Origin: an uncultured Gammaproteobacteria bacterium
GTDB taxonomy: Bacteria; Patescibacteriota; Microgenomatia; JALYQM01
Assembly: GCA_964535655.1 (NCBI GenBank)
Contig: CAZHTP010000001.1
Location: forward strand, 98,573-162,572
DNA: 64,000 bases
Reading direction: 5' to 3'
Shown one piece after another: positions 4,705 to 16,454 of the stretch (its first letter is position 1; each line of letters opens with the position of its first letter). Under the pieces are notes generated by a model, which had not been told where the DNA came from, searched no databases, and saw nothing but the letters and a program-made list of their open reading frames with translations. The translations under genes were made by a program, and so were the position numbers.

Positions 4705-5020
4705 TTTGATTAGTCCGACGCGTACGGCAGTTCCCTTGCGCTTGGCTATGTAGCCAATTGTTCCCCTTGGGGGGGATTGTATTCGCAAAGAAAAGTGGAG
4801 AGATGGGGCCAAAAATTAGCCTCATTTTTCCACTTTTCTTAGGAATAGCTTTACAAATGAAATTTTTATATATTGCTCTCTATGTTAAAGAACAAATTCG
4901 GCGACAAGTGTCGCTAAGTCTTATCAACCGTAAACTTCTAAAATGAAGTGAGGTCGATTTGACCGAGTTATTATACTATAGGATAGTTGTTTTTGTCAAC
5001 ACTATGGGATTTACTATTAG

Positions 5021-5323
5021 CTACGCAGGGAGTTTGAATTCCGGAAAGATTTCTTTAATCTTTGGCTCATTTTTGTCGCCAAGGCTTTCGAGTATCTCAA
5101 ATACAGTTCGTACTCCAGCTAAATTTAGCCCTTTTTTACGGGTAAGATATTGAATGAATCGCAAGCGATCAATGTCTGCTGGGCTATAGCGGCGGCGATT
5201 GGTTTTTGTGCGGTGAGGAATTACTAAATTTTCATTTTCGTATAGCATTAGTGTACGTTGATGTACACCAATAATCTCGGCGGCAATCGACAAAGTGAAT
5301 AAGGGTTTAGTATTTGTATTCAT
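5021..5323 (-). CDS. hspR: MerR-family transcriptional regulator resembling heat-shock repressor HspR.
   Basis: An HTH (LSIAAEIIGVHQRTLMLYE) is followed by RRYSPADIDRLRFIQYL..GLNLAGVRTVFEILE, which is typical of HspR proteins. The gene is divergent from the hrcA-dnaK operon. Confidence 0.65.
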   Translation of the reverse strand: MNTNTKPLFTLSIAAEIIGVHQRTLMLYENENLVIPHRTKTNRRRYSPADIDRLRFIQYLTRKKGLNLAGVRTVFEILESLGDKNEPKIKEIFPEFKLPA

Positions 5324-5435
5324 AATATTTATAATTCTTACAATATTACTAATATATATTAGTGAGAAACAAAATGTAAAGACTCACAAAATGTTATAGC
5401 ATTGTTTATTTTTAGTGTATAGTAACTTTTTTGTC

Positions 5436-5465
5436 TTGACAAGAGTTTAGCAGTCGATTTATACT
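5436..5465 (+). promoter_or_regulatory. Putative promoter of the hrcA-grpE-dnaK-dnaJ operon (TTGACA-N18-TATACT).
   Basis: TTGACA lies at 5436-5441 and TATACT at 5460-5465. The -10 overlaps the CIRCE-like element. Confidence 0.45.
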
Positions 5466-5473
5466 ATTGCTAG
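5447..5473 (+). promoter_or_regulatory. CIRCE-like HrcA operator (TTAGCAGTC-N9-TATTGCTAG).
   Basis: The left arm matches the CIRCE consensus TTAGCACTC at 8/9 positions and the right arm matches GAGTGCTAA at 6/9. Spacing is exactly 9 nt, and the element lies just upstream of hrcA. Confidence 0.5.
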
Positions 5474-5512
5474 ATTTTGAGTTGTATTTTTGATTAAATA
5501 TTGGAGAAACCT

Positions 5513-6244
5513 ATGCGTGATTTGTCCCCTCGGCAGTTGAAAATCCTACAGGCCATAGTAGAAGAACATGTAGCGACTGGAACTGCAGTGGGGTCGGAAA
5601 CTATCGAAAAGAAATATAAGCTTGGAGTTTCACCTGCGACAGTGCGTAATGAGATGGTGAAGCTTGTTGAAATGGGGTATTTAAAACAGCCGCATACATC
5701 GGCTGGACGTGTTCCGACAACTGTTGCGCTTCGACTGTATATTCAGGAAATTATGAAGGAAAAGCAGCTATCAGTGCGCGAAGAGGTGCAAATTAAGCAA
5801 CAATTGTGGGATCAGCGGTTTGACTACGAGCGGTTAATGCGCCATGCGACCTTGGTTCTTGCTGATAGTACTCGGCTTTTAGGGATTGCGATTACTGGTG
5901 ACGACGATATTTTTTATGCTGGTGCTGCCAATATTTTGGATATTCCGGAGTTTTTTGATATTGATGTAACTAAAACAGTACTGTCATTACTTGACCGGCA
6001 TGAATCTTTATTGGAGCTTATTAAAACACGAGTGACCGATGACCCCGTTAAGGTGCTTTTGGGGGAGGAGCTGGATATGCACTACCTTGAGCCGTGTGGA
6101 TTTGTGTTTACTGGATTTCGGGCGGGAAAATATGGTAGTGGGATGGTTGGTATTATTGGCCCTTCGCGGTTAAATTACCCTCATGTCGTACCAACGGTGC
6201 GATATTTTGGGAACTTGATTAGTGAAGTAGGACGGAACTGGTAA
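5513..6244 (+). CDS. hrcA: Heat-inducible transcription repressor HrcA.
   Basis: MRDLSPRQLKILQAIVEEHVATGTAVGSETI matches the HrcA N-terminal winged helix. The ATG at 5513 is preceded by GGAG. The ORF-track start at 5501 is a TTG lying within that RBS. Confidence 0.85.
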   Translation: MRDLSPRQLKILQAIVEEHVATGTAVGSETIEKKYKLGVSPATVRNEMVKLVEMGYLKQPHTSAGRVPTTVALRLYIQEIMKEKQLSVREEVQIKQQLWDQRFDYERLMRHATLVLADSTRLLGIAITGDDDIFYAGAANILDIPEFFDIDVTKTVLSLLDRHESLLELIKTRVTDDPVKVLLGEELDMHYLEPCGFVFTGFRAGKYGSGMVGIIGPSRLNYPHVVPTVRYFGNLISEVGRNW

Positions 6245-6293
6245 TTCATTTTATATTGATTATTTATTACATACTATTTAGTTAGGGGGAATT

Positions 6294-6824
6294 ATGGACG
6301 ACACACAGAATAAAAATGATGCTGTCCAAGATGATGTTATTGATACCGATGAAGGTACTACAGATTCTGGTGATGATGTGGTGCAAAAGCTCATGGCACA
6401 GAACGAAGATTTGACTAATAAATGGAAGCGAGCAGTTGCTGACTACCAAAATCTTGAGAAGCAGGTGCGTCGCGAGAAAAGCGAATTTATGCAGTTTGCG
6501 ACCATGAATGTTATTGTGCAGTTTTTGCCAATCTTGGATAATTTAGAGCAAGCATTGGGCGGAATGAAAGATGAGGAGAAAAAGAGCGGTTGGGCTGTGG
6601 GGGTGCTGATGACTGCTAAGCAGTTTAAAGATATGCTTAAAGAGGAAGGGCTAACTGAAATTAAAGCAGAAGGTGAGGAATTTGACGCTCATAAAATGGA
6701 GCCAGTAGATACAGTGGAAGGTGAGAAAAATAAAGTTATCACAGTTATTAAAAAAGGATATGAAGGGTTTGGAAAAGTGGTAAGACCAGCTCAGGTAATT
6801 ATTGGAAAAGGAATGAATAGTTAG
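6294..6824 (+). CDS. grpE: Nucleotide exchange factor GrpE.
   Basis: GrpE coiled-coil and C-terminal beta domain motifs are present (KRAVADYQNLEKQVRRE..., VIKKGYEGFGKVVRPAQVII). The RBS is GGGGGA. Confidence 0.9.
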   Translation: MDDTQNKNDAVQDDVIDTDEGTTDSGDDVVQKLMAQNEDLTNKWKRAVADYQNLEKQVRREKSEFMQFATMNVIVQFLPILDNLEQALGGMKDEEKKSGWAVGVLMTAKQFKDMLKEEGLTEIKAEGEEFDAHKMEPVDTVEGEKNKVITVIKKGYEGFGKVVRPAQVIIGKGMNS

Positions 6825-6870
6825 TCGGGGTTTATTGAAATAAAATTTTATTATTTAAAGGAGTTATTTT

Positions 6871-8769
6871 ATGTCAAGAATAATTGGTATTGACCTTGGA
6901 ACAACCAACTCCTGCGTAGCAGTGATGGAAGGTGGAAAGCCAAAGGTTATTCATAGCGCAGAAGGACGCAATGTTATTCCTTCTGTTGTTGAAGTGGTTA
7001 AACATATTGTAGGGGATGTTGCAAAACGTCAAATGATTGTTAACCCTGAAACAACAATTTTTTCAGTTAAGCGGTTAATGGGGCATAAGCTTCATGACGC
7101 TTCCGTTCAGAAAGATTTAAAGCAGTTACCTTATAAAGTTGTTGCTGGGCGTGATGATATGGCCGATGTAGAAGTACAAGGAAGAACCTATACTCCGCAA
7201 GAGGTTTCTGCGATGATTTTGCAAAAGATCAAGGCCGATGCGGAGGCATACCTTGGCGAAAAAGTAACTCAAGCGGTTATTACGGTTCCTGCTTATTTTG
7301 ACGACGCACAGCGCCAGGCTACTAAGCAGGCTGGAGAAATTGCAGGCTTAGAAGTAAAGCGTATTATTAACGAGCCGACGGCTGCAGCACTTGCATATGG
7401 TTTAGATAAGTCTAATGCGCATACTATTTTGGTGTATGACCTTGGTGGTGGAACGTTTGATGTTTCGGTTTTGGAATTGGGAGAAGGTGTCTATGAAGTT
7501 CGGTCAACATCAGGAGACACACATCTGGGTGGCGATGACTTTGATCAAAAAATTATTGATTGGTTGATTGCTGAATTTAAGAATGAGCAGGGCGTTGATC
7601 TTTCAAAAGACAAGCAGGCATTACAACGCTTAAAGGATGCGGCCGAAAAGGCAAAGATTGAACTGTCTTCGTCACAAGAAGCTGAGATTTCGCTGCCGTT
7701 TGTAACGGCTGATGCTTCGGGACCTAAGCATTTGCAGATGAAGCTATCTCGCGCTAAGCTTGAACAGCTTGTTGGTGATTTGGTTGATCGCACCTTTAAT
7801 GCTGTCAAAACTGCATTAAAAGATGCTGGACTTGAAACTTCTAAAATTGACGAAATAGTGTTGGTTGGTGGTATGACCCGTATGCCAGCGGTTCAGGAAG
7901 CGGTCAAGAAGTTTTTTGGAAAAGATACCCATAAAGGGATTAATCCTGATGAGGTTGTGGCGATTGGTGCGGCTATCCAAGGGGGAGTATTAGGTGGAGA
8001 AGTTAAAGATGTATTGTTACTTGATGTTACTCCGCTTTCACTTGGTATTGAAACTTTGGGTGGCGTTTCAACTAAATTAATAGAAAAGAACACGACTATT
8101 CCAACTTCTAAGTCGCAGGTGTTTTCAACCGCTGCTGATAACCAAACATCGGTTGAAGTGCATGTGCTGCAAGGTGAGCGCGAATTTGCTGCCGATAATA
8201 AGTCGCTGGGTCGCTTTATTCTTGATGGTATTCCACCCGCACCACGCGGCGTTCCTCAGGTTGAAGTTACGTTTGATATCGACGCAAACGGTATCTTAAA
8301 TGTTTCAGCCAAAGAGAAGCAGAGTGGCAAGGAACAGAAAATTACGATTACCGGTTCAACCGGATTGTCTAAAGATGAAGTTACTCGTATGCAGCAGGAA
8401 GCCGAGCAGCATGCAGAGGAAGACAAAAAGAAGAAGGAAGAAGTAGAAACTCGTAACCATGCCGATTCACTCGTCTTTACCGCCGAGAAAGCATTGAAAG
8501 ATGCTGAAGGAAAAATCCCTGATGATGTAAAAAAAGAGGTACAAAGTAAAATTGATGAGTTAAAACCAATTGTTCATACGGGTTCTGTAGAAGAAGTGAA
8601 AATGAAAACCGAAAGCTTATCTGCCACCATTCAAAAGATTGGTTCAGCGATGTATGCTACTCCAGGCGCGGGTGCCGCACCAGGTTCTGATCCGGGAGCT
8701 TCAGCTGGAGCAAGCGATGGAGCAGGAGATGATAAGAAAGATGCACAAGAAGGTGAAGTGGTAGGGTAA
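6871..8769 (+). CDS. dnaK: Molecular chaperone DnaK (Hsp70).
   Basis: [24 protein letters not shown] and [10 protein letters not shown] are Hsp70 signatures. The RBS is AAAGGAG. Confidence 0.97.
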
Positions 8770-8771
8770 AT

Positions 8772-9632
8772 ATGGCTGATTATTACGCAACACTTGGTGT
8801 TGCACGAACCGCTACTCCTGAAGAAATAAAGAAAGCCTATCGGGGATTGGTGCGCAAGCACCACCCCGATGTGGATAAATCCGCTGATGCCGAAAAAAAG
8901 TTCAAGGAGATTTCTAATGCGTATGAAGTGTTGTCTGATCCACAGAAACGTCAAACATATGATCAATTTGGCAGTGCCGCTTTTGAAGGAAACGCAGCAG
9001 GTGGTGCGAGTTATGGAGGAAATCCATTTGGAGGTGGTAATCCGTTTGGTGGAGCTGGAGGGTATCAGTATTCGTATTCATCAAGTGGTGACTTTGATCC
9101 TTTTGATGTTTTAAACTCTTTTTTTGGGGGAGGAAGCCCCTTTGGAGGTGGTGCTGGGGGTAAACGTGCCCAACGGACACCCACGTATCAAATTCAGATA
9201 AGTTTTGATGATGCAGTGCATGGAGTGGAGAAGGAAGTTTCGATTGAAGGGAAGTCGCGTAAGATTAAAATTCCGGCAGGGGTTGACGACGGAACGCGGA
9301 TTAAGTTTGATGATTTTTCGTTAATTGTTTCAGTTTTACCTTCAGAAATTTTTCAACGAGACGGCTTTGATGTAATCGTTGAAAAAGAGATCCCGTTTGT
9401 TTTGGCAACGCTTGGTGGATCAACTCTGGTACCAACAGTTGATGGCGATGTGGAGCTAAAAATTCAGCCTGGTACGCAACCTGGTACAGTGGTGAGACTT
9501 GGAGGGCGTGGAATAAAGTCAACACGAGGTAATGCGCGGGGAGATGAGTATGTTAAATTTATTGTGAAGGTACCAACAAAGCTTTCAAATAAAGCTAAAA
9601 AACTGGTAGAAGAGTTACAGAAAGAACTATAA
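8772..9632 (+). CDS. DnaJ-family co-chaperone (J-domain, Gly/Phe-rich region, C-terminal substrate-binding domains) lacking the Cys-rich zinc-finger. It is CbpA/type II-like.
   Basis: The J-domain carries the HPD motif (KHHPDVDK). The G/F region is GGNPFGGAGGY. No CxxCxGxG repeats are present. Confidence 0.85.
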   Translation: MADYYATLGVARTATPEEIKKAYRGLVRKHHPDVDKSADAEKKFKEISNAYEVLSDPQKRQTYDQFGSAAFEGNAAGGASYGGNPFGGGNPFGGAGGYQYSYSSSGDFDPFDVLNSFFGGGSPFGGGAGGKRAQRTPTYQIQISFDDAVHGVEKEVSIEGKSRKIKIPAGVDDGTRIKFDDFSLIVSVLPSEIFQRDGFDVIVEKEIPFVLATLGGSTLVPTVDGDVELKIQPGTQPGTVVRLGGRGIKSTRGNARGDEYVKFIVKVPTKLSNKAKKLVEELQKEL

Positions 9633-9634
9633 TT

Positions 9635-10462
9635 TTATTTTATTCTTCGCGGCCCACCACCTCTGACAACAGGAACAGGTAATTTTTCTTTTAGGATGTG
9701 ACGCGCTGTAAGCATTTCAGGGATATCATGTTGTGAAGCAAACAACAGTCTTCCAGCGGCCGTTCTGTGATTATCGTTTTTGAAAACTTCAAAATTTGGA
9801 CTTTTTAATTCATTATCACACCCTGATAGGACAAAAGTTTTTCGCTGTGATCTTTCCCGATTACTATTACCTGACCCAACTGTTATACAAAATGATCCTT
9901 CAGGTTTCAGGAAAGCAGCGAGTCGTGCAATCGCAGATCGTTTATCGGGATCGTCTTTCTGGGCAAATTGGCGAAATACTTCAGGATCCGCTCGATTGAT
10001 AACGATCGTATCAAAAGGAGTTCCATGATATGTATCAGTAAAGCCACGTATGCCGAGCTCGTAATGATGAAGTGTTGTGGGAGCAATAATTGGACTTAAG
10101 GACTTTATGAGATCTTCTATATCAGTTCGCGGATCGAATGATATTGCGGAGCCAACTTTAAAGCGAGCTGATTCCTCTATATTTCCTGGTACGTCTATCG
10201 TTATTTTTGCCATTAGCGTTTTAAATGCATCTGGACGATAGGCAACTCGTAGCCAATAATCTGAGGGTGGCTCTACATAAAATGCAGAAACTTCATCTAA
10301 TGCTAACCCAGCTCCTACAAATAACGCATTTCCACCTCTTTTTATCTTTCCCATGAGTTCAAGTGTTCTAAATGCGCGATAAAAGGTATGCATTCCAGGA
10401 AATCTTAGATAGGCTTCCGCTTCTTGATGGATTAGGCTGTACTTTCTGCGGCTGCTATCCAT
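9635..10462 (-). CDS. Hypothetical protein, possibly with a class I methyltransferase-like fold.
   Basis: The RBS GAGAAGG lies 5 nt upstream of the ATG. Motifs are weak (ALFVGAGLA, LKPEGSF). No confident family assignment is possible. Confidence 0.55.
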   Translation of the reverse strand: MDSSRRKYSLIHQEAEAYLRFPGMHTFYRAFRTLELMGKIKRGGNALFVGAGLALDEVSAFYVEPPSDYWLRVAYRPDAFKTLMAKITIDVPGNIEESARFKVGSAISFDPRTDIEDLIKSLSPIIAPTTLHHYELGIRGFTDTYHGTPFDTIVINRADPEVFRQFAQKDDPDKRSAIARLAAFLKPEGSFCITVGSGNSNRERSQRKTFVLSGCDNELKSPNFEVFKNDNHRTAAGRLLFASQHDIPEMLTARHILKEKLPVPVVRGGGPRRIK

Positions 10463-10650
10463 TGTGCCTTCTCTATGGGTAGCGGTGTAGCATCAGCTAT
10501 CGTTCGCAGTGATTGTACTTGATCGATAGGTATTGCTTTCTGGATTTCGGCCTGAATTACTAAATCATTTTCATGGCGAAATTTTTCTTTAGTGGCTCTT
10601 ACCTCAGTAGGGAGGTGCCGCATACTATTTCTTACAAATTCTGCACTCAT
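10432..10650 (-). CDS. Small hypothetical protein (72 aa). It overlaps the downstream gene by 31 nt and is probably leaderless.
   Basis: The ATG lies 6 nt downstream of a TTGAAT-N17-TATAAT promoter. No SD sequence is present. Confidence 0.4.
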   Translation of the reverse strand: MSAEFVRNSMRHLPTEVRATKEKFRHENDLVIQAEIQKAIPIDQVQSLRTIADATPLPIEKAQWIAAAESTA

Positions 10651-10656
10651 TTGCGA

Positions 10657-10685
10657 ATTATACTATAGGTCTTTATATAATTCAA
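10657..10685 (-). promoter_or_regulatory. Near-consensus promoter (TTGAAT-N17-TATAAT) ending 6 nt before the ATG at 10650. This implies a leaderless transcript.
   Basis: On the minus strand the sequence reads TTGAAT tatataaagacctatag TATAAT tcgcaa ATG. Confidence 0.4.
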
Positions 10686-10689
10686 TACT

Positions 10690-11298
10690 TTGTGTTATAC
10701 TTTTTGGGTGGAATTGGTTCAAAATATCCTTAAAAAAGAAGAAAAACGACAATTTGTGTATAGTTGGTTTGGCGATGACAATCGCGAGGACCAGCATGAA
10801 ATCGTGTTGGAAGGGGATAATAGTGAAGTGGATGTTTATGGTATATTCTACGGTCATGACGCTTCAACCTTTAAAAGTAACGTGCGAGTTGTTCATAAAG
10901 GGCTAAATACTCGGGCAAACGTGTTTGCCTGCGGGGTCGTTGTTGATCGTTCATTTTTGGATTTCTCGGGGATGCTGAGGGTTGAGCATGGAGCTAAAGG
11001 TACTCGGACATTTTTTAGAGCAAATTTGATGATTCTTTCGCCTAAGGCTGCTGCCAATACGTTTCCTGGGCTTGAGATTGAGGAGAATGATATTGCGCAC
11101 GGTGGACACGCAGCAACGGTAGGTAAGGTTAACGAAGAGCAGATGTTTTATTTAATGAGTAGAGGCTTAACTGAATCTGAGTCTAAAAAAATTGTAATCC
11201 AGGGGTTTTTTGAACCGGTATTGAGTAAAATTGAGGAAGATGAACAAGGTGCGTTGCGAAGTAAATTAAATTCGTTACTTGAAACGTACTATTTATGA
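10690..11298 (+). CDS. sufD: Short SufB/SufD-family Fe-S cluster assembly protein.
   Basis: SufBD C-terminal beta-helix motifs are present (GACGVVVDRSF..DFSGMLRVEHGAKGTRTFFRANLMILSPKAAANTFPGLEIEENDIAHGGHAATVG). The annotated start is a TTG, so the true start is uncertain. Confidence 0.65.
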   Translation: MCYTFWVELVQNILKKEEKRQFVYSWFGDDNREDQHEIVLEGDNSEVDVYGIFYGHDASTFKSNVRVVHKGLNTRANVFACGVVVDRSFLDFSGMLRVEHGAKGTRTFFRANLMILSPKAAANTFPGLEIEENDIAHGGHAATVGKVNEEQMFYLMSRGLTESESKKIVIQGFFEPVLSKIEEDEQGALRSKLNSLLETYYL

Positions 11299-12500
11299 GA
11301 AATTTTCGTGAAGACTTTCCATTGTTACAGAATAGAGAGGTTGTCTTTTTGGATTCAGCGGCGAGTGCACAAAAGCCGAAACCAGTAATTGAGGCGATGG
11401 TTGATGTAATGGAGAGGCATTATGCGAATGTTAATCGCGGCGTATATACCTTGTCTGAAGAGGTCACGGTGCTTGTTGAAGAATCACGAGCTACAGTGCA
11501 GAAATTTATTAATGCAACCCAACCAGAAGAAATCATATTTACCAGAAATACAACGGAATCAATTAATTTGATAATGTATACATGGGCGCGGAAAAATTTT
11601 GTTAAAGGCGATATTGTCGTGATTACGGAAATGGAACATCACTCGAATATTGTTCCCTGGCAAATGTTACGAGATGAAATTGGTGTTGAGCTTGTTTGGA
11701 TTCCTGTGAATGACGAAGGGTACTTGGCATGGGAAGAGTTTAAAACGCGAGATACTTCACGGATTAAGTTAATTTGTGTGACTCATGTTTCCAATGTTTT
11801 AGGCACTATAAATCCAATTAAAGAAATTGCCTCCTGGACTCATGCCATTGGTGCCAAAATTTTAGTTGATGGCGCCCAAGGGGTTACAAATATTCCTGTT
11901 GATGTGCAAGATCTTGATGTGGATTGGTATGCGTTTTCGGGGCACAAGTTATATGGACCGAGTGGGGTTGGCGTTCTCTATGGAAAGACTGACTTATTGG
12001 GTGAGATGCAGCCATTTTTAGGGGGCGGCGATATGATCTTAGAGGTCACAAAAGAAAAGACAACGTATAAGGAGCCACCGCATAAGTTTGAAGCAGGAAC
12101 TCCAGCAATTGTTGAAATTATAGGATTAGGTGCTGCAATTGATTATGTTTTGGCAATTGGGATGGATGTAATTCGTGAACATAATTTAGAATTGACGACA
12201 TATGCTATTGGGAAGTTGAACCACATTGAAGGCGTTAAATTGTATGGTCCTTCAAAAGTAGAACATAAGGGTGGAGTGATTGCATTTTCAATGGAAGGAA
12301 TTCATCCGCATGATATTGCAACTATTCTTAATGAAAACTCGATTGCGATTCGAAGTGGGCATCATTGTGCACAACCCTTATGTGACCGAATGGGACAGTC
12401 AGCACTAGCGCGAGTGAGCTTTGGAATCTATAACACTAAGGAAGAAATCGATTTGCTTATTACTGGATTACAACAGGTACGATCTGTATTTAAACTATAA
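11295..12500 (+). CDS. sufS: Cysteine desulfurase SufS (class V aminotransferase).
   Basis: The PLP-lysine motif FSGHKLYGPSGVGVLYG is present, together with a C-terminal catalytic Cys region (RSGHHCAQP). A 4-nt start/stop overlap with the upstream gene suggests coupling. Confidence 0.9.
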   Translation: MRNFREDFPLLQNREVVFLDSAASAQKPKPVIEAMVDVMERHYANVNRGVYTLSEEVTVLVEESRATVQKFINATQPEEIIFTRNTTESINLIMYTWARKNFVKGDIVVITEMEHHSNIVPWQMLRDEIGVELVWIPVNDEGYLAWEEFKTRDTSRIKLICVTHVSNVLGTINPIKEIASWTHAIGAKILVDGAQGVTNIPVDVQDLDVDWYAFSGHKLYGPSGVGVLYGKTDLLGEMQPFLGGGDMILEVTKEKTTYKEPPHKFEAGTPAIVEIIGLGAAIDYVLAIGMDVIREHNLELTTYAIGKLNHIEGVKLYGPSKVEHKGGVIAFSMEGIHPHDIATILNENSIAIRSGHHCAQPLCDRMGQSALARVSFGIYNTKEEIDLLITGLQQVRSVFKL

Positions 12501-12502
12501 AA

Positions 12503-12868
12503 ATGAATTTATACCAAGACGAAATTCTCGATCATTATAAACATCCTCATAATAAAAAGCGTCTTAGTGATGTTACCGATTCTGTTGAGGCGGTTAATCC
12601 GTTATGCGGTGATAAGCTTGGACTTGATGTTAAAATTCTTGACGGAGTGATTTGTGAGGCTGGGTATTGGGGAGAGGGGTGTGCAATTTCGCAAGCTTCG
12701 ATGTCGATGCTTAGTGATGAGCTAATCGGCATGAAAGTTGTTGATTTGGAGGGAATTACGCAAGAGACAATTTTAGAAATGTTGGGAGTTTCCGTTGGAC
12801 CGTCTCGGTTAAAATGTGCTTTACTTCCGCTTACTCTGGTTCAAAAGATTCTCAAGAATTTGCATTGA
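12503..12868 (+). CDS. sufU: SufU/IscU-like sulfur-transfer scaffold.
   Basis: NPLCGDKL...GCAISQASMSM...KCALLPL matches the conserved Cys/Asp ligands of SufU. Confidence 0.85.
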   Translation: MNLYQDEILDHYKHPHNKKRLSDVTDSVEAVNPLCGDKLGLDVKILDGVICEAGYWGEGCAISQASMSMLSDELIGMKVVDLEGITQETILEMLGVSVGPSRLKCALLPLTLVQKILKNLH

Positions 12869-12904
12869 TTAGGTATAGTATATTTGGTATAGTTATGGAG
12901 CTTT

Positions 12905-13168
12905 ATGGGAAAACTTGTTAAAAAAGTAAAAATTGATCAAAGTATGTGTATTGGTGCGGGAACGTGCGTTGTTCTCGACCCGAACGGTTTTTTGCTCGAT
13001 GCGGAAAATAAAGCAGTATATAAAGATCCGGAAAATCCCGGTGTAACTCTTGTTGAATATGAATTTCCTCAGCCGGTCGATAATTTTGACCTGGTTCAGG
13101 CAGCTGAAGGATGTCCGGTTCAATGTATATATTTATATGATGAAAACGGGGAACAAATTTTTCCTTAG
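12905..13168 (+). CDS. Small mono-cluster ferredoxin.
   Basis: CIGAGTC...CPVQCI matches the Cys spacing of single [3Fe-4S]/[4Fe-4S] ferredoxins. The gene lies directly downstream of sufU. Confidence 0.7.
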   Translation: MGKLVKKVKIDQSMCIGAGTCVVLDPNGFLLDAENKAVYKDPENPGVTLVEYEFPQPVDNFDLVQAAEGCPVQCIYLYDENGEQIFP

Positions 13169-13188
13169 TTTTAGAAAGGACTAATGCT

Positions 13189-14013
13189 GTGAGCGAACAT
13201 GATATTGATAAAAAGGATGCTGTAGTAGGCGCATCGGAGGAGCAGAAATCAACTCCTGTTATTCACCAGAATATAAATCGTGGTGGATTTTTAAATGGCG
13301 GGTGGCCAACGACATTACTATTCCTCATTGCTTTCTTTGTCGTTAGTTATTCCCTTGGGGTTGTAATTGAGCGGAATAATAAAATTACAACAGGTGGTGG
13401 AACTGGAACTCAGGCTGCAGGCAATAGAAATTTTACTATTACTGGCTTTAAGAAAGCTGCATCTGATTTGAAGCTGGATACTAAGAAGTTTAATGCCTGT
13501 CTTGATTCAGGAAAGTATGCGGCTGATGTTAAGAAAGATTCTGACGAAGGTATTTCACTTGGTATTAATGGAACTCCATCGTTTGTTATTAACGGGGTTG
13601 CACTTGTGGGCGCACAGCCTTTGACGGTATTTCAGCAGATTTTACAAGGATCGCCAATAGTTATGGATCCGGAGGCAACTACTTCGGCAGGAATGGCTGA
13701 CGGAAAGAAGGTGACAGGAACGATTGCAATGGATAATGTTCGAATGAGAGGAGATAAAAATGCCCCTATAACTATTGTTGAATATTCGGATTTTCAATGC
13801 CCTTACTGTGGTCGATTTTATCAGGATACTTATCGTAAGATTGATGAAGAATTTATAAAAACAGGTAAAGCTAAAATTGTATTTAAAGATTTTCCTCTTT
13901 CTATTCATCCTCAAGCTTCTAAAGCTGCGGAAGCAGCACGTTGCGCACAGGAACAGGGTAAGTTTTGGGAGATGCACGACAAATTATTTGAACTTCAGTT
14001 GAGTTCGACCTAA
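13189..14013 (+). CDS. Membrane-anchored DsbA/BdbD-like thiol:disulfide oxidoreductase with circularly permuted domain order. The C-terminal half precedes the CPYC-containing N-terminal half.
   Basis: The TM helix WPTTLLFLIAFFVVSYSLGVVI is followed by the DsbA C-terminal block (FNACLDSGKYAADVKKDSDEGISLGINGTPSFVINGV). Then comes the N-terminal block (NAPITIVEYSDFQCPYCGRF...FWEMHDKLFE), after which the ORF ends. Confidence 0.75.
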   Translation: MSEHDIDKKDAVVGASEEQKSTPVIHQNINRGGFLNGGWPTTLLFLIAFFVVSYSLGVVIERNNKITTGGGTGTQAAGNRNFTITGFKKAASDLKLDTKKFNACLDSGKYAADVKKDSDEGISLGINGTPSFVINGVALVGAQPLTVFQQILQGSPIVMDPEATTSAGMADGKKVTGTIAMDNVRMRGDKNAPITIVEYSDFQCPYCGRFYQDTYRKIDEEFIKTGKAKIVFKDFPLSIHPQASKAAEAARCAQEQGKFWEMHDKLFELQLSST

Positions 14014-14036
14014 ATTAAAGTTCAATGTGAATAATT

Positions 14037-14068
14037 AAGCCTGGATATTTTTATTCAGGCTTTTTTTG
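14037..14068 (+). terminator. Intrinsic terminator (AAGCCTG-loop-CAGGCTT followed by TTTTTTT).
   Basis: A 7-bp stem lies at 14037-14043 / 14056-14062, followed by a T-run. Confidence 0.7.
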
Positions 14069-14146
14069 AACTGTCCTTATTGCGATGGCTGTAAGTGTTT
14101 GGGTAAATAGTAGCAAATAAGGTATAATGAGAGCTGAGGTGCTATT

Positions 14147-15310
14147 ATGCGCATTTGTATCGACATCTCTCAGACTGTCTATGAAGGTAGCGGAAGTGGT
14201 CGCTATGTTGTGGAGTTGGTTAAAGAGCTTTTAGCTCAAGATCAGACAAACGAGTACGTCCTTTTTGGAAGCGCGATGCGTCGACGATCTCAGCTTGTTT
14301 CTTTTGTTGCATTGCTTAAAGAACAATTTCCCAAAAGTCATATTACGCCGAAACTATTTTATTTCCCGCCAAAATTTTTTGAAATAGTATGGAATCGTTT
14401 ACATATTCTTCCGCTTGAGTTTTTTACTGGGCGAGTTGATGTATACCATTCTTCAGATTGGGTGGAAGCTTTGAGTAAAGCAAAGCGTGTAACAACGGTT
14501 CATGATTTAATTCCCTTTTTGTATCCGGTATTTGTTCATCCGCGGATTCGAGAGGCGCATATACTGCGGTGGAAACGAATTCTTGCTGAGGAAGATTGTG
14601 TTATTGTCGATGCAGAAATTACTAAGAAAGATATTATTTCGCGATTTTCTTTTCCAGCAGAAAAAATCGCCGTAATACCCTTGGCTTGTGATGCCCGTTT
14701 TTTCGAGATAGGTGAAAAGCGAATTCAGGGTTTGTTGAAAACTGACGCTCAATTGATAGAAGTACTTACCAGCTATAACTTAAATTTTGATTCGTATATT
14801 TTGTGTGTTGGTACCCTAGAACCACGAAAAAATATTCAGCGATTAATTCAGGCGTATTCACAACTTGATGTGAATTTTCGAGAAAAATTTCCGCTTGTTG
14901 TCGTTGGTAAAAAGGGATGGAGTTCTGATTTTGACTCTCGCGATAACGTAAGCTTTACCGGGTATGTTGCCGATACTGACTTACCGTATCTGTATGGTGG
15001 CGCAAAATGTTTTGTGATGCCAAGTTATTATGAAGGGTTTGGGCTTCCTGTCCTTGAGGCGATGGCCAGTGGAGCTCCGGTCATTTGTTCAAATATTTCA
15101 TCACTTCCAGAAATTGGTGGGGAAGAGGTCCATTATATTGAAGATCCTGAAAGTATTGAATCGATCAGACTTATTTTATCTCATGTATTGGTAAGCCCTA
15201 TTGAAGAACTATCATTAGTAGCAAAAAGTGCTTATACTCGATCTAAGACCTTTTCTTGGCAGAAAACAGCTGAGAGAACGCGTGAGATTTATAATAATTT
15301 AGTTAATTAA
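14147..15310 (+). CDS. Family GT4 glycosyltransferase (GT-B fold).
   Basis: The C-terminal E-x7-E region is present ([27 protein letters not shown]). Confidence 0.85.
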
Positions 15311-15323
15311 ACGGATATTATAT

Positions 15324-16454
15324 ATGAAAATCGGAATTGATGGTAATGAAGCGAATATAGCCGATAGAGTAGGTAGTGGTATGTATGCATACCAAGTTTT
15401 GAAGCATCTTTATGAGCTTGATACCTGGAATGAATATACGATCTATCTTAAACATGCTCCTATACGAGACATGCCCAATGAACGTAAAAACTGGAAATAC
15501 GTGGTATTGGGCCCAGAAAAATTGTGGACTCAATTTGCACTTCCTTTAAGGTTATTTATTGACGGGCGTAAGCTTGATGTATTTTTTTCTCCAGGACATT
15601 ATGCTCCTCGTTTTTGTCCTTGTAAGACAGTTATCTCTGTTCTTGATACTGCATATCTGCGTTTCCCTGAGTACTTTAAGAAAAGTGATTTAATGCAACT
15701 AAAGTCTTGGTCGAAATATAGCATAAAGAAAGCTGCTCATGTTTTAACTATTTCAGAATCATCAAAACAAGATATTGTTAAATTTTATGGTACAGATCCA
15801 AACAAGGTTACTGTTACTTATCTTGGCTTTGACACTGAGACATTTAAACCTGTTGAGAACGAAGAAAAAATTAAAAAAATCCTTGATAAATATGGATTTA
15901 AGCGGCCGTATATATTGTATTTAGGGACACTACAACCGCGAAAAAACATCGTCCGATTAATTCAAGCTTTTAAGGATCTTATTACTCAGGAAAGTTACAC
16001 TCAGCTTGGCTTAAAGTTAGTAATCGTTGGGAAAAAAGGGTGGTTATATCAGGAGATTTTTGCGGAAGTAAAGAAATTGCAGTTAGAAGATGTTGTCGTG
16101 TTTACCGGGTATATTACTGATGATGAAAAACCGGCAATTCTTTCGGGAGCGCTACTATATACGCTCCCTTCGTTATATGAAGGATTTGGAATTCCTGTTT
16201 TGGAAGCGATGGCGTGTGGAACACCTGTTGTTGTTTCACGAATTTCATCCCTGCCTGAAGTAGTAGGTGAATATGGGGTTCTTGTTGATCCGTATAATGT
16301 AAAGAGTATTAGTGGTGGACTAAAATTGTTGGTAAAAGATGTTGATTTACGTGAACAATTGAAAAAAAATGGATTGCAGTGGGTTAAACAATTTGATTGG
16401 ATGCACACCGCTCGTACAACTCTTGCGGTATTAGAATCTTATAGAAAAGAGTAA
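15324..16454 (+). CDS. Family GT4 glycosyltransferase.
   Basis: The GT4 signature YTLPSLYEGFGIPVLEAMACGTPVVVS is present. Confidence 0.85.
   Translation: MKIGIDGNEANIADRVGSGMYAYQVLKHLYELDTWNEYTIYLKHAPIRDMPNERKNWKYVVLGPEKLWTQFALPLRLFIDGRKLDVFFSPGHYAPRFCPCKTVISVLDTAYLRFPEYFKKSDLMQLKSWSKYSIKKAAHVLTISESSKQDIVKFYGTDPNKVTVTYLGFDTETFKPVENEEKIKKILDKYGFKRPYILYLGTLQPRKNIVRLIQAFKDLITQESYTQLGLKLVIVGKKGWLYQEIFAEVKKLQLEDVVVFTGYITDDEKPAILSGALLYTLPSLYEGFGIPVLEAMACGTPVVVSRISSLPEVVGEYGVLVDPYNVKSISGGLKLLVKDVDLREQLKKNGLQWVKQFDWMHTARTTLAVLESYRKE

Follow-up and report, generated by a model that had tools for sequence, protein, structure and literature searches.

The permuted gene and its locus

The window, by which we mean the whole 64-kb stretch of DNA that was analysed, carries on its plus strand at 13189..14013 an open reading frame for a protein of 274 aa, with a GTG start and a TAA stop, which we describe here as a circularly permuted, membrane-anchored DsbA-like protein. 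Inspection of the sequence revealed a Shine-Dalgarno-like element, AGAAAGGA, at 13173..13180 (plus strand), 8 nt 5' of the GTG. The frame starts 20 nt past the stop of a small ferredoxin gene (12905-13168); no terminator-like site was found on the plus strand between the two, and from this arrangement they are probably co-transcribed. As a direct read of the sequence shows, the frame is closed by TAA at 14011..14013 (plus strand), 4 residues past the H3-equivalent helix, and 24 nt beyond the stop lies an intrinsic-terminator-like element (14037..14069, plus strand), a hairpin of 11 pairs (14037-14062) with a T run. A hairpin of this kind is also kept at the ortholog locus L083 (89% identical). 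Both the stop just past a helix and the terminator behind it had been pointed out in a preliminary description of the gene, and both hold. Scans of the 64-kb window for tRNAs and Rfam families gave no matches.

All parts of the protein are encoded on the plus strand. The N-terminal tail (aa 1-37; 13189..13299) is variable: it is poorly conserved in an alignment of the 15 permuted orthologs (A1), has a pLDDT of 46-58 in the AF2 model described below, and is presumed to be cytoplasmic. It is followed by the transmembrane anchor (aa 38-60; 13300..13368), with the motif GGFLNGGWPTTLLFLIAFFVVSYSLG. This is a single hydrophobic helix, conserved and of putative membrane orientation; AF2 predicts a helix at 38-68, and the anchor is common to the unpermuted positional orthologs. 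A flexible tether (aa 61-80; 13369..13428) connects the anchor with the point at which the domain now starts. It is variable in A1, with a pLDDT of 54-56 per 10-residue block and values below 50 at residues 69-75.

The DsbA domain itself begins with what is ordinarily its C-half (aa 81-165; 13429..13683), which comprises three helices of the insert (H4-H6), the cis-Pro loop, two beta strands and, at its end, the final helix. This half contains the codon of Cys104 (13498..13500), which belongs to a non-catalytic pair and lies in the H5-equivalent helix, and Gly128-Thr129-Pro130 (13570..13578), the cis-Pro loop of thioredoxin-fold oxidoreductases. A linker (aa 166-183; 13684..13737) connects the old C-terminus to the old N-terminus. 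The N-half (aa 184-270; 13738..13998) then supplies beta1, beta2, the CPYC helix, beta3 and H2-H3. The catalytic Cys204-Pro-Tyr-Cys207 (13798..13809) stands at the start of a predicted helix (205-223), and the codon of Cys252 (13942..13944), in the H2-equivalent helix, encodes the partner of Cys104 as judged from A1 and from co-occurrence counts. C204, P205, C207, G128-T129-P130, C104 and C252 are invariant in A1; in a larger alignment of 107 sequences (A2), C204, P205 and Pro130 are invariant.

Order of the two halves and predicted fold

The order of the halves is seen in a Pfam scan. Residues 87-153 matched the C-terminal end of the 191-position DSBA profile (positions 125-191), and the match of residues 185-268 was to the N-terminal part of the 165-position Thioredoxin_4 profile (positions 6-88). 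The scores were 109.5 bits for Thioredoxin_4 (PF13462) against a gathering threshold of 23.2, and 68.6 bits for DSBA (PF01323) against 25.6; each half scanned by itself gave the same partial match. When the halves were rejoined, N then C, a single collinear Thioredoxin_4 match was obtained over positions 6-163 of 165 (E 3.7e-34) and the DSBA match became complete, 1-191 of 191. The de-permuted sequence also aligned with Corynebacterium DsbA/TsdA (4pwp, 4pwo, 7unn) over 163 residues without a gap (E ~2e-25), running through the artificial junction uninterrupted, and with BdbD (3eu3) at E 1.7e-19. The gap-free alignment across the junction indicates that the cut hardly removed or added any sequence. 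The collinear order of the family (beta-alpha-beta with CXXC, helical insert, beta-beta-alpha) is thus not followed by the frame. Collinearity is the one DsbA-family criterion in which it fails; in sequence, motifs and predicted fold it conforms. Two other assignments were rejected. NCBIfam NF041057 (Rcas_1661 family thioredoxin-like (seleno)lipoprotein) scored 135.5 bits in two stretches, below its curated cut-off of 190, and membership of the tandem multi-domain DsbAs fails since the frame holds one C-half and one N-half, with none hidden in other frames or flanks.

The same C-N order was found in 15 of the best 120 database homologs, proteins of 266-296 aa that are 52-100% identical, and all 15 stop 0-4 residues past the N-half. 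Several sit on long contigs of up to 1.57 Mb. Compared with the 89%-identical ortholog L083, dN/dS was 0.053 overall, 0.054 for the C-half and 0.063 for the N-half, revealing strong purifying selection on both halves. The preliminary description had argued for a natural circular permutation rather than a truncated gene, and had named as checks a profile search, which should return two partial matches in swapped order, and a look for the arrangement in orthologs. The two partial matches and the shared arrangement were both observed, and together with the collinear match of the de-permuted sequence and the selection on both halves they support its reading. We regard a natural circular permutation of DsbA as well supported.

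A single-sequence AF2 run reached a pLDDT of only 36, and a run with a 107-sequence alignment a mean of 86.6. That alignment consisted of the 15 permuted orthologs and of tandem DsbA proteins, whose C1-linker-N2 stretch is collinear with the query; the C- and N-halves of these tandem proteins come from different domains, and since they make up most of the alignment the model may lean on learned family knowledge. Over aa 81-270 the pLDDT was 90-98 per 10-residue block, with one linker block at 81 (the two linker blocks of aa 161-180 had means of 81 and 94). The predicted elements of the C-half are helices at 84-93, 98-107 and 111-123, strands at 131-134 and 137-140, and a helix at 145-152; those of the N-half are strands at 185-188 and 194-200, a helix at 205-223, a strand at 228-234, and helices at 243-254 and 259-273. 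Together they form, in the model, a complete thioredoxin fold with an alpha-helical insertion domain, and this alignment-based prediction places the new termini in the helical insertion, as had been anticipated.

A Foldseek search with the predicted model gave its longest alignment (203 columns) and its top target-normalised TM-score (0.66) with 1un2, an engineered permutant of E. coli DsbA, whereas natural DsbAs aligned over 85-95 columns with TMt of 0.30-0.44. The model can thus be aligned sequentially over nearly the whole domain with the permutant and not with DsbAs of wild-type order. As the aligners are sequential, this suggests that the window protein and the engineered permutant have a common chain topology. 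The window protein ends with '...FWEMHDKLFELQLSST' and its domain starts with 'NFTITGFKKAASDL...', at the H3/H4 loop. The termini of the engineered protein cpDsbA_Q100T99, T99/Q100, lie in what we take to be the corresponding loop between insert helices 3 and 4 of E. coli DsbA. Hennecke, Sebbel and Glockshuber reportedly carried out the random circular permutation of E. coli DsbA in 1999.

Unpermuted orthologs and the origin of the arrangement

Seven homologs were found to combine the unusual anchor of the permuted clade with the ordinary order of anchor, N-half and C-half. The anchor motif RGGFMxGG...FLxAFFxVSYSLG occurs only in the 15 C-N proteins and in five of these N-C proteins, and in none of the tandem proteins. 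Moreover, both forms occupy the same genomic slot, with the gene order SufBD, SufS, NifU-like, small ferredoxin, [DsbA], (YggT-like), GT4, GT4, hexapeptide transferase, GT2. The permuted form fills this slot in the window, L002, L083 and the P0011 contig, and the ordinary form in L084/L085, L086, L087, L088 and L089. Pairwise BLAST of the ordinary against the permuted form gave three blocks: the anchor (1-70 to 1-67), the pre-N linker with the N-half (~88-193 to ~165-270) and the C-half (191-268 to 75-152). As judged from the sequences, these blocks account for everything, as an exchange of A-B-C for A-C-B. Gene lengths are alike (271-286 aa for the ordinary and 266-296 aa for the permuted form), as are the downstream spacers. 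Furthermore, the linker between the permuted halves is homologous to the pre-N stretch of the unpermuted orthologs (G-L/M-x-D-G-x-K-V...; 'G-L-Q-D-G-x-K-V...R-x-K-G-D-K-N-A').

The DnaK encoded in the window places the organism in the Microgenomates group of the Patescibacteria/CPR; among named matches, the nearest are those of Candidatus Daviesbacteria (72-77% identity). DnaK identity to the window was 92% for the genome with a permuted gene on a 1.57-Mb contig (P0006), 91% for that with a 173-kb contig (P0007), and 86% for those with a 373-kb contig (P0011) and a 52.7-kb contig (P0022), these four pairings of DnaK and genome being indirect. The genomes with the ordinary form followed at 85% (L089), 83% (L087), 82% (L088) and 79% (L086). 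On these identities the putative permutation event is bracketed between the permuted and the ordinary genomes. A neighbour-joining (NJ) tree of de-permuted domains (174 sequences, 167 columns, 200 bootstrap replicates) joined the 15 permuted proteins in a clade with 82% support, and these with the seven ordinary proteins of the same anchor with 89%. Taken together, the common slot, the tree and the DnaK identities indicate that the permutation arose in place, within a shallow clade.

The block exchange would therefore have started from an anchor-N-C gene. Its most likely route is an internal duplication to anchor-N-C-linker-N-C, after which the leading N-half and the trailing C-half would have been lost; this fits the homology of the linker to the pre-N stretch and the fact that tandems are the commonest form in the wider family. 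Neither the 386 retrieved proteins nor the reading frames of the loci included a tandem or C-N-C intermediate with the clade anchor, and for this reason the route is unproven. In the unpermuted ortholog P0043, the linker behind the anchor has a stretch ('LVNGTALAGQ' against 'VINGTALVGA') that might have been left over from a C-half; this was rejected, as the C-half HMM gave E ~0.07-0.09 and in one of seven sequences only.

Three other accounts of the gene itself have to be weighed against this. It is extremely improbable that an assembly error or a frameshift in neighbouring or tandem DsbA genes produced the arrangement, and nothing was found in favour of this. L001, a Logan assembly made independently, matches the window without a difference over 3179 bp, and the same architecture recurs in many samples and assemblies, on contigs as long as those mentioned above. 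Searching the whole 64-kb window in any frame by tblastn with diverse N- and C-halves revealed no other DsbA half, which answers the possibility of two tandem DsbA genes raised earlier and agrees with the earlier statement that nothing is missing downstream. For the window as well as ten other C-N loci, tblastn detected one C-half and then one N-half in a single frame, with no extra halves in the flanks except for a weak N-type match downstream in L009. It might still be argued that the gene is a decaying, non-functional remnant of a tandem two-domain DsbA gene, since N-C-N-C tandems make up 93 of the best 120 homologs and the query is collinear with their C1-linker-N2 stretch at ~67% query coverage. 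We strongly disfavour this account. A dN/dS of about 0.05 in both halves is not that of a decaying gene, 15 orthologs, the most distant of them 52% identical, have retained the swapped order together with every catalytic residue, the flanks hold no leftover half-domain DNA by tblastn, and in the conserved syntenic slot close relatives have a single ordinary DsbA of the same length. Finally, the halves could complete each other between chains, as a domain-swapped dimer or oligomer. The monomeric AF2 prediction is compatible with such a swap, the family is rich in tandem multi-DsbA proteins, and the PDB matches include DsbA-like proteins that are trimers or dimers (ScsC, alpha-DsbA2, DsbG). However, with 18-45 residues in all orthologs (A1) the linker is easily long enough for a single chain to close on itself, AF2 packs the halves intrachain with pLDDT above 90, and the engineered cpDsbA of the same topology was crystallised with its global fold preserved, according to the title of entry 1un2. 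We consider the swap improbable.

We therefore hold it very likely that the gene encodes a working natural permuted DsbA, which would fold within one chain, arose in place and has been kept by purifying selection. On this reading the chain would run from the anchor through H4-H6, the cis-Pro loop and the beta-beta-alpha unit, then the linker, beta1-beta2, the CPYC helix, beta3 and H2-H3. Both halves would pack into one DsbA domain of the usual kind, its new ends lying in the H3/H4 loop and well away from the active site, and strong purifying selection would have acted ever since the block exchange.

Second cysteine pair, recurrence and relation to known systems

The positions of Cys104 and Cys252 were compared in 764 N-C domain pairs. 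Both cysteines were present in 269, neither in 490 and only one in 5 (Fisher p ~1e-203 for their co-occurrence); the pair thus has a background frequency of 35%, in a sample skewed towards the query. In the C-N proteins, both were present in 24 of 24. The AF2 model puts C252 in the H2-equivalent and C104 in the H5-equivalent helix, so that a bond between them would clamp the halves across the H3/H4 break. In M. tuberculosis DsbA Rv2969c, a non-catalytic disulfide, Cys140-Cys192, joins H2 and H5 of the insert (PMC3792642); the likeness to C104/C252 is one at the level of helices, drawn from the AF2 helix order and that description. A fragment search of solved DsbAs for counterparts of C104/C252 returned matches that all lack the pair. 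We suggest that C104-C252 is probably a structural disulfide stapling the halves over the chain break, and we hypothesise that such a staple, already present beforehand, is what makes the H3/H4 site permissive.

Swapped order was also found outside the clade of the window. Among the matches listed in a scan of GTDB species representatives, where the window clade itself is absent, at least seven further C-N genes were found: L004 (Saccharibacteria), L006, L009 (Levyibacteriota), L015 (Kerfeldbacteria), L072, L023 (Chloroflexi) and L031 (Anaerolineaceae). All seven stop shortly past an FWxxHDxLF helix without a C-half downstream, and none of the seven loci shares the window's gene neighbourhood or anchor. 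An HMM census of a representative library of 1.84 billion proteins showed the window clade in just two clusters at 50% identity (P0011, P0023); this census is dominated by multi-repeat DsbAs, as their scores add up.

A single ancient permutation behind all C-N proteins, spread by descent or transfer, would explain why all of them carry the same cut, stopping shortly past that helix, and the second cysteine pair, and support for the deep nodes of the NJ tree is poor. Nevertheless, we consider a single origin unlikely. The clade of the 15 permuted and seven unpermuted same-anchor proteins (89%) excludes the other C-N proteins, and monophyly of all C-N proteins was recovered in 0 of 200 bootstrap replicates. 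Each distant C-N group is closer to unpermuted domains than to any other C-N group, in agreement with the differing neighbourhoods and anchors; the N-half of L004, for example, shares 77% identity with an ordinary protein and no more than 61% with other C-N proteins. L023 with L031 (100%) and L015 with L072 (94%) form separate pairs in the bootstrapped NJ tree. Under a single origin, moreover, the unpermuted positional orthologs would still need a second, reverse permutation. These sequence relationships require at least two permutation events and loosely suggest about five, a number to be held lightly since the deep nodes are weak and the NJ tree was built on short sequences. Repeated permutation at the H3/H4 loop, in no fewer than two lineages and perhaps about five (the Microgenomates clade of the window, Saccharibacteria, Levyibacteriota, a Kerfeldbacteria-like group and Anaerolineae), at a site made permissive by a pre-existing H2-H5 disulfide, is a reading that we put forward tentatively, with slightly less than even confidence. 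If true, nature has hit the very site of a permutant that was built and crystallised in the laboratory, and the family displays all stages of the duplication-deletion model: single, tandem and permuted.

In function, we propose that the protein would be a thiol:disulfide oxidoreductase of the DsbA family, tethered by its N-terminal transmembrane helix to the outer face of the cytoplasmic membrane. There it would pass the CPYC disulfide to secreted or membrane proteins and be re-oxidised by a membrane partner, in a role that, by homology, should resemble that of BdbD, MdbA or Corynebacterium DsbA. CP[YF]C motifs are found in isomerases and reductases as well. A crude screen of the 64-kb window for DsbB/VKOR candidates (at least three hydrophobic segments and a CxxC) returned none. 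In the model, the tether is shifted from beta1 to the insert helix H4, at the domain end that is remote from the active site. The shift may be neutral or may re-orient the domain relative to the membrane, and it could affect how the domain faces its membrane partner in CPR bacteria. To our knowledge, the oxidative-folding machinery of the CPR is essentially unstudied.

The interest of the system lies mainly in protein evolution and folding, as it offers orthologous pairs from before and after the event and a structural twin made in the laboratory. Natural permutations are usually inferred between distant families whose route is no longer visible; this one provides a tractable natural system in which to study how permutations arise and why some sites tolerate cuts, with the crystallised cpDsbA_Q100T99 as a ready benchmark. 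Collinear profile searches and sequential structure aligners detect only half of such a protein. The database names, 'DsbA family protein', 'thioredoxin domain-containing protein' and 'protein-disulfide isomerase', do not mention the rearrangement. The openly searchable literature yielded no natural permuted DsbA, only engineered permutants (Hennecke et al. 1999, 1un2), and a 2021 structural-bioinformatic survey of DsbAs makes no mention of permuted or tandem forms.

Once the halves are re-ordered, the closest solved relatives by sequence are B. subtilis BdbD (3eu3) and Corynebacterium DsbA/TsdA (4pwo, 4pwp, 7unn), oxidoreductases of monoderm bacteria that are membrane-anchored or lipoproteins. 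Like the window protein, they have a CPxC motif, a cis-Pro loop and a helical insert; they are also tethered outside the cytoplasm, which is putative in our case. However, their order is the ordinary N-then-C, the window protein in its native order matches them across just one half, and in alignment Corynebacterium DsbA/TsdA lacks the second cysteine pair. M. tuberculosis DsbA Rv2969c and Wolbachia alpha-DsbA1 (3f4r; C97A/C146A mutant 3f4t) also have a conserved non-catalytic cysteine pair; their disulfide lies within one continuous segment, whereas that of the window protein would span the chain break. The tandem DsbAs of Chloroflexi, Myxococcota and others (N-C repeated from two to about seven times) are collinear with the window protein in their C1-linker-N2 stretch, over the coverage given above and at 40-50% identity, and represent the type of intermediate expected under duplication and deletion. 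Unlike the window protein, they consist of complete domains, and none has the clade anchor motif. Natural circular permutation is known for the DsbB/VKOR pair (PMC4555120) and, in general terms, within the thioredoxin-like fold class (PMC3091736). The phenomenon is the same, and duplication with deletion is its usual explanation; but those cases link distant families, whereas here the permuted and unpermuted proteins are positional orthologs in genomes whose DnaK is ~85% identical. The nearest counterpart in chain topology is cpDsbA_Q100T99 (1un2), which likewise has its termini in the helical insert. It is a laboratory construct of a soluble periplasmic enzyme, with 13-16% identity to the window protein, whereas the latter is natural, membrane-anchored and Thioredoxin_4/BdbD-like, with a long natural linker and a second cysteine pair.

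Gene neighbourhood of the permuted DsbA

The DsbA gene (13189-14013, + strand) lies between a small ferredoxin ORF (12905-13168) and the first of two GT4 ORFs (14147-15310 and 15324-16454), within a long, conserved same-strand gene string (5501-16454) that is common to the permuted ortholog locus L002 and to the orthologous loci of ordinary order L086-L089. Upstream, on the same strand as all of these, are HrcA-like (5501-6244), GrpE-like (6294-6824), DnaK-like (6871-8769) and DnaJ-like (8772-9632) ORFs, followed by SufBD-like (10690-11298), SufS-like (11295-12500) and NifU/SufU-like (12503-12868) ORFs. The HrcA-, GrpE-, DnaJ- and SufBD-like identities were assumed from position in the orthologous loci. 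Only 20 nt separate the ferredoxin stop from the DsbA start, and no terminator was found between these two genes; because of this, the disulfide oxidoreductase may be co-transcribed with the Fe-S cluster assembly genes.

On the 3' side of DsbA, most orthologous loci, whether permuted or unpermuted, carry a gene for a 128-aa YggT-like membrane protein (permuted L083, 1431-1817, and L002, 6943-7329; unpermuted L084, 2577-2963). This gene is missing after DsbA in the window (14014-14146) and in the independent assembly L001, and tblastn detected no copy elsewhere in the whole 64 kb.

Across the window (1-64000; GC content 40.4%), the + strand carries nearly all of the large ORFs. ARAGORN found no tRNA genes in it, and no Rfam family reached the gathering threshold.

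Half-domain-like stretches in other loci

In the distant C-N locus L009 (Levyibacteriota), a weak N-half-like tblastn match (5903-6010; about 36 aa, E 8e-4) was observed approximately 200 nt downstream of the C-N gene (4773-5705), in a different frame. The match may be a relic or part of a further gene with a thioredoxin fold; it does not represent a C-half. In P0043, an unpermuted ortholog, residues 71-82 of the post-anchor linker (LVNGTALAGQQQ; L084 about 1844-1879) resemble the final beta strand in the C-half (VINGVALVGAQP). This stretch was not taken as evidence for a C-half relic, as the match was not significant (E about 0.07-0.09), and it was not found in the other six unpermuted proteins tested.

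Relatives and poly-DsbA proteins

The DsbA proteins of L006, L020, L040, L047 and L072, GTDB MAGs labelled "uncultured Gammaproteobacteria bacterium", are closest, within the data set, to those of CPR and archaeal MAGs, and those of L006 and L072 are of the permuted form. These labels may be unreliable.

We further observed "poly-DsbA" proteins, which are not known to have been characterised, with 4 to about 7 complete DsbA domains in succession. They occur mostly in Myxococcota and Chloroflexi MAGs; examples are P0121 (1163 aa), P0127 (1196 aa) and those at loci L008, L021, L024, L027, L029, L039 and L052. Such proteins made up the bulk of the top matches in the profile search.
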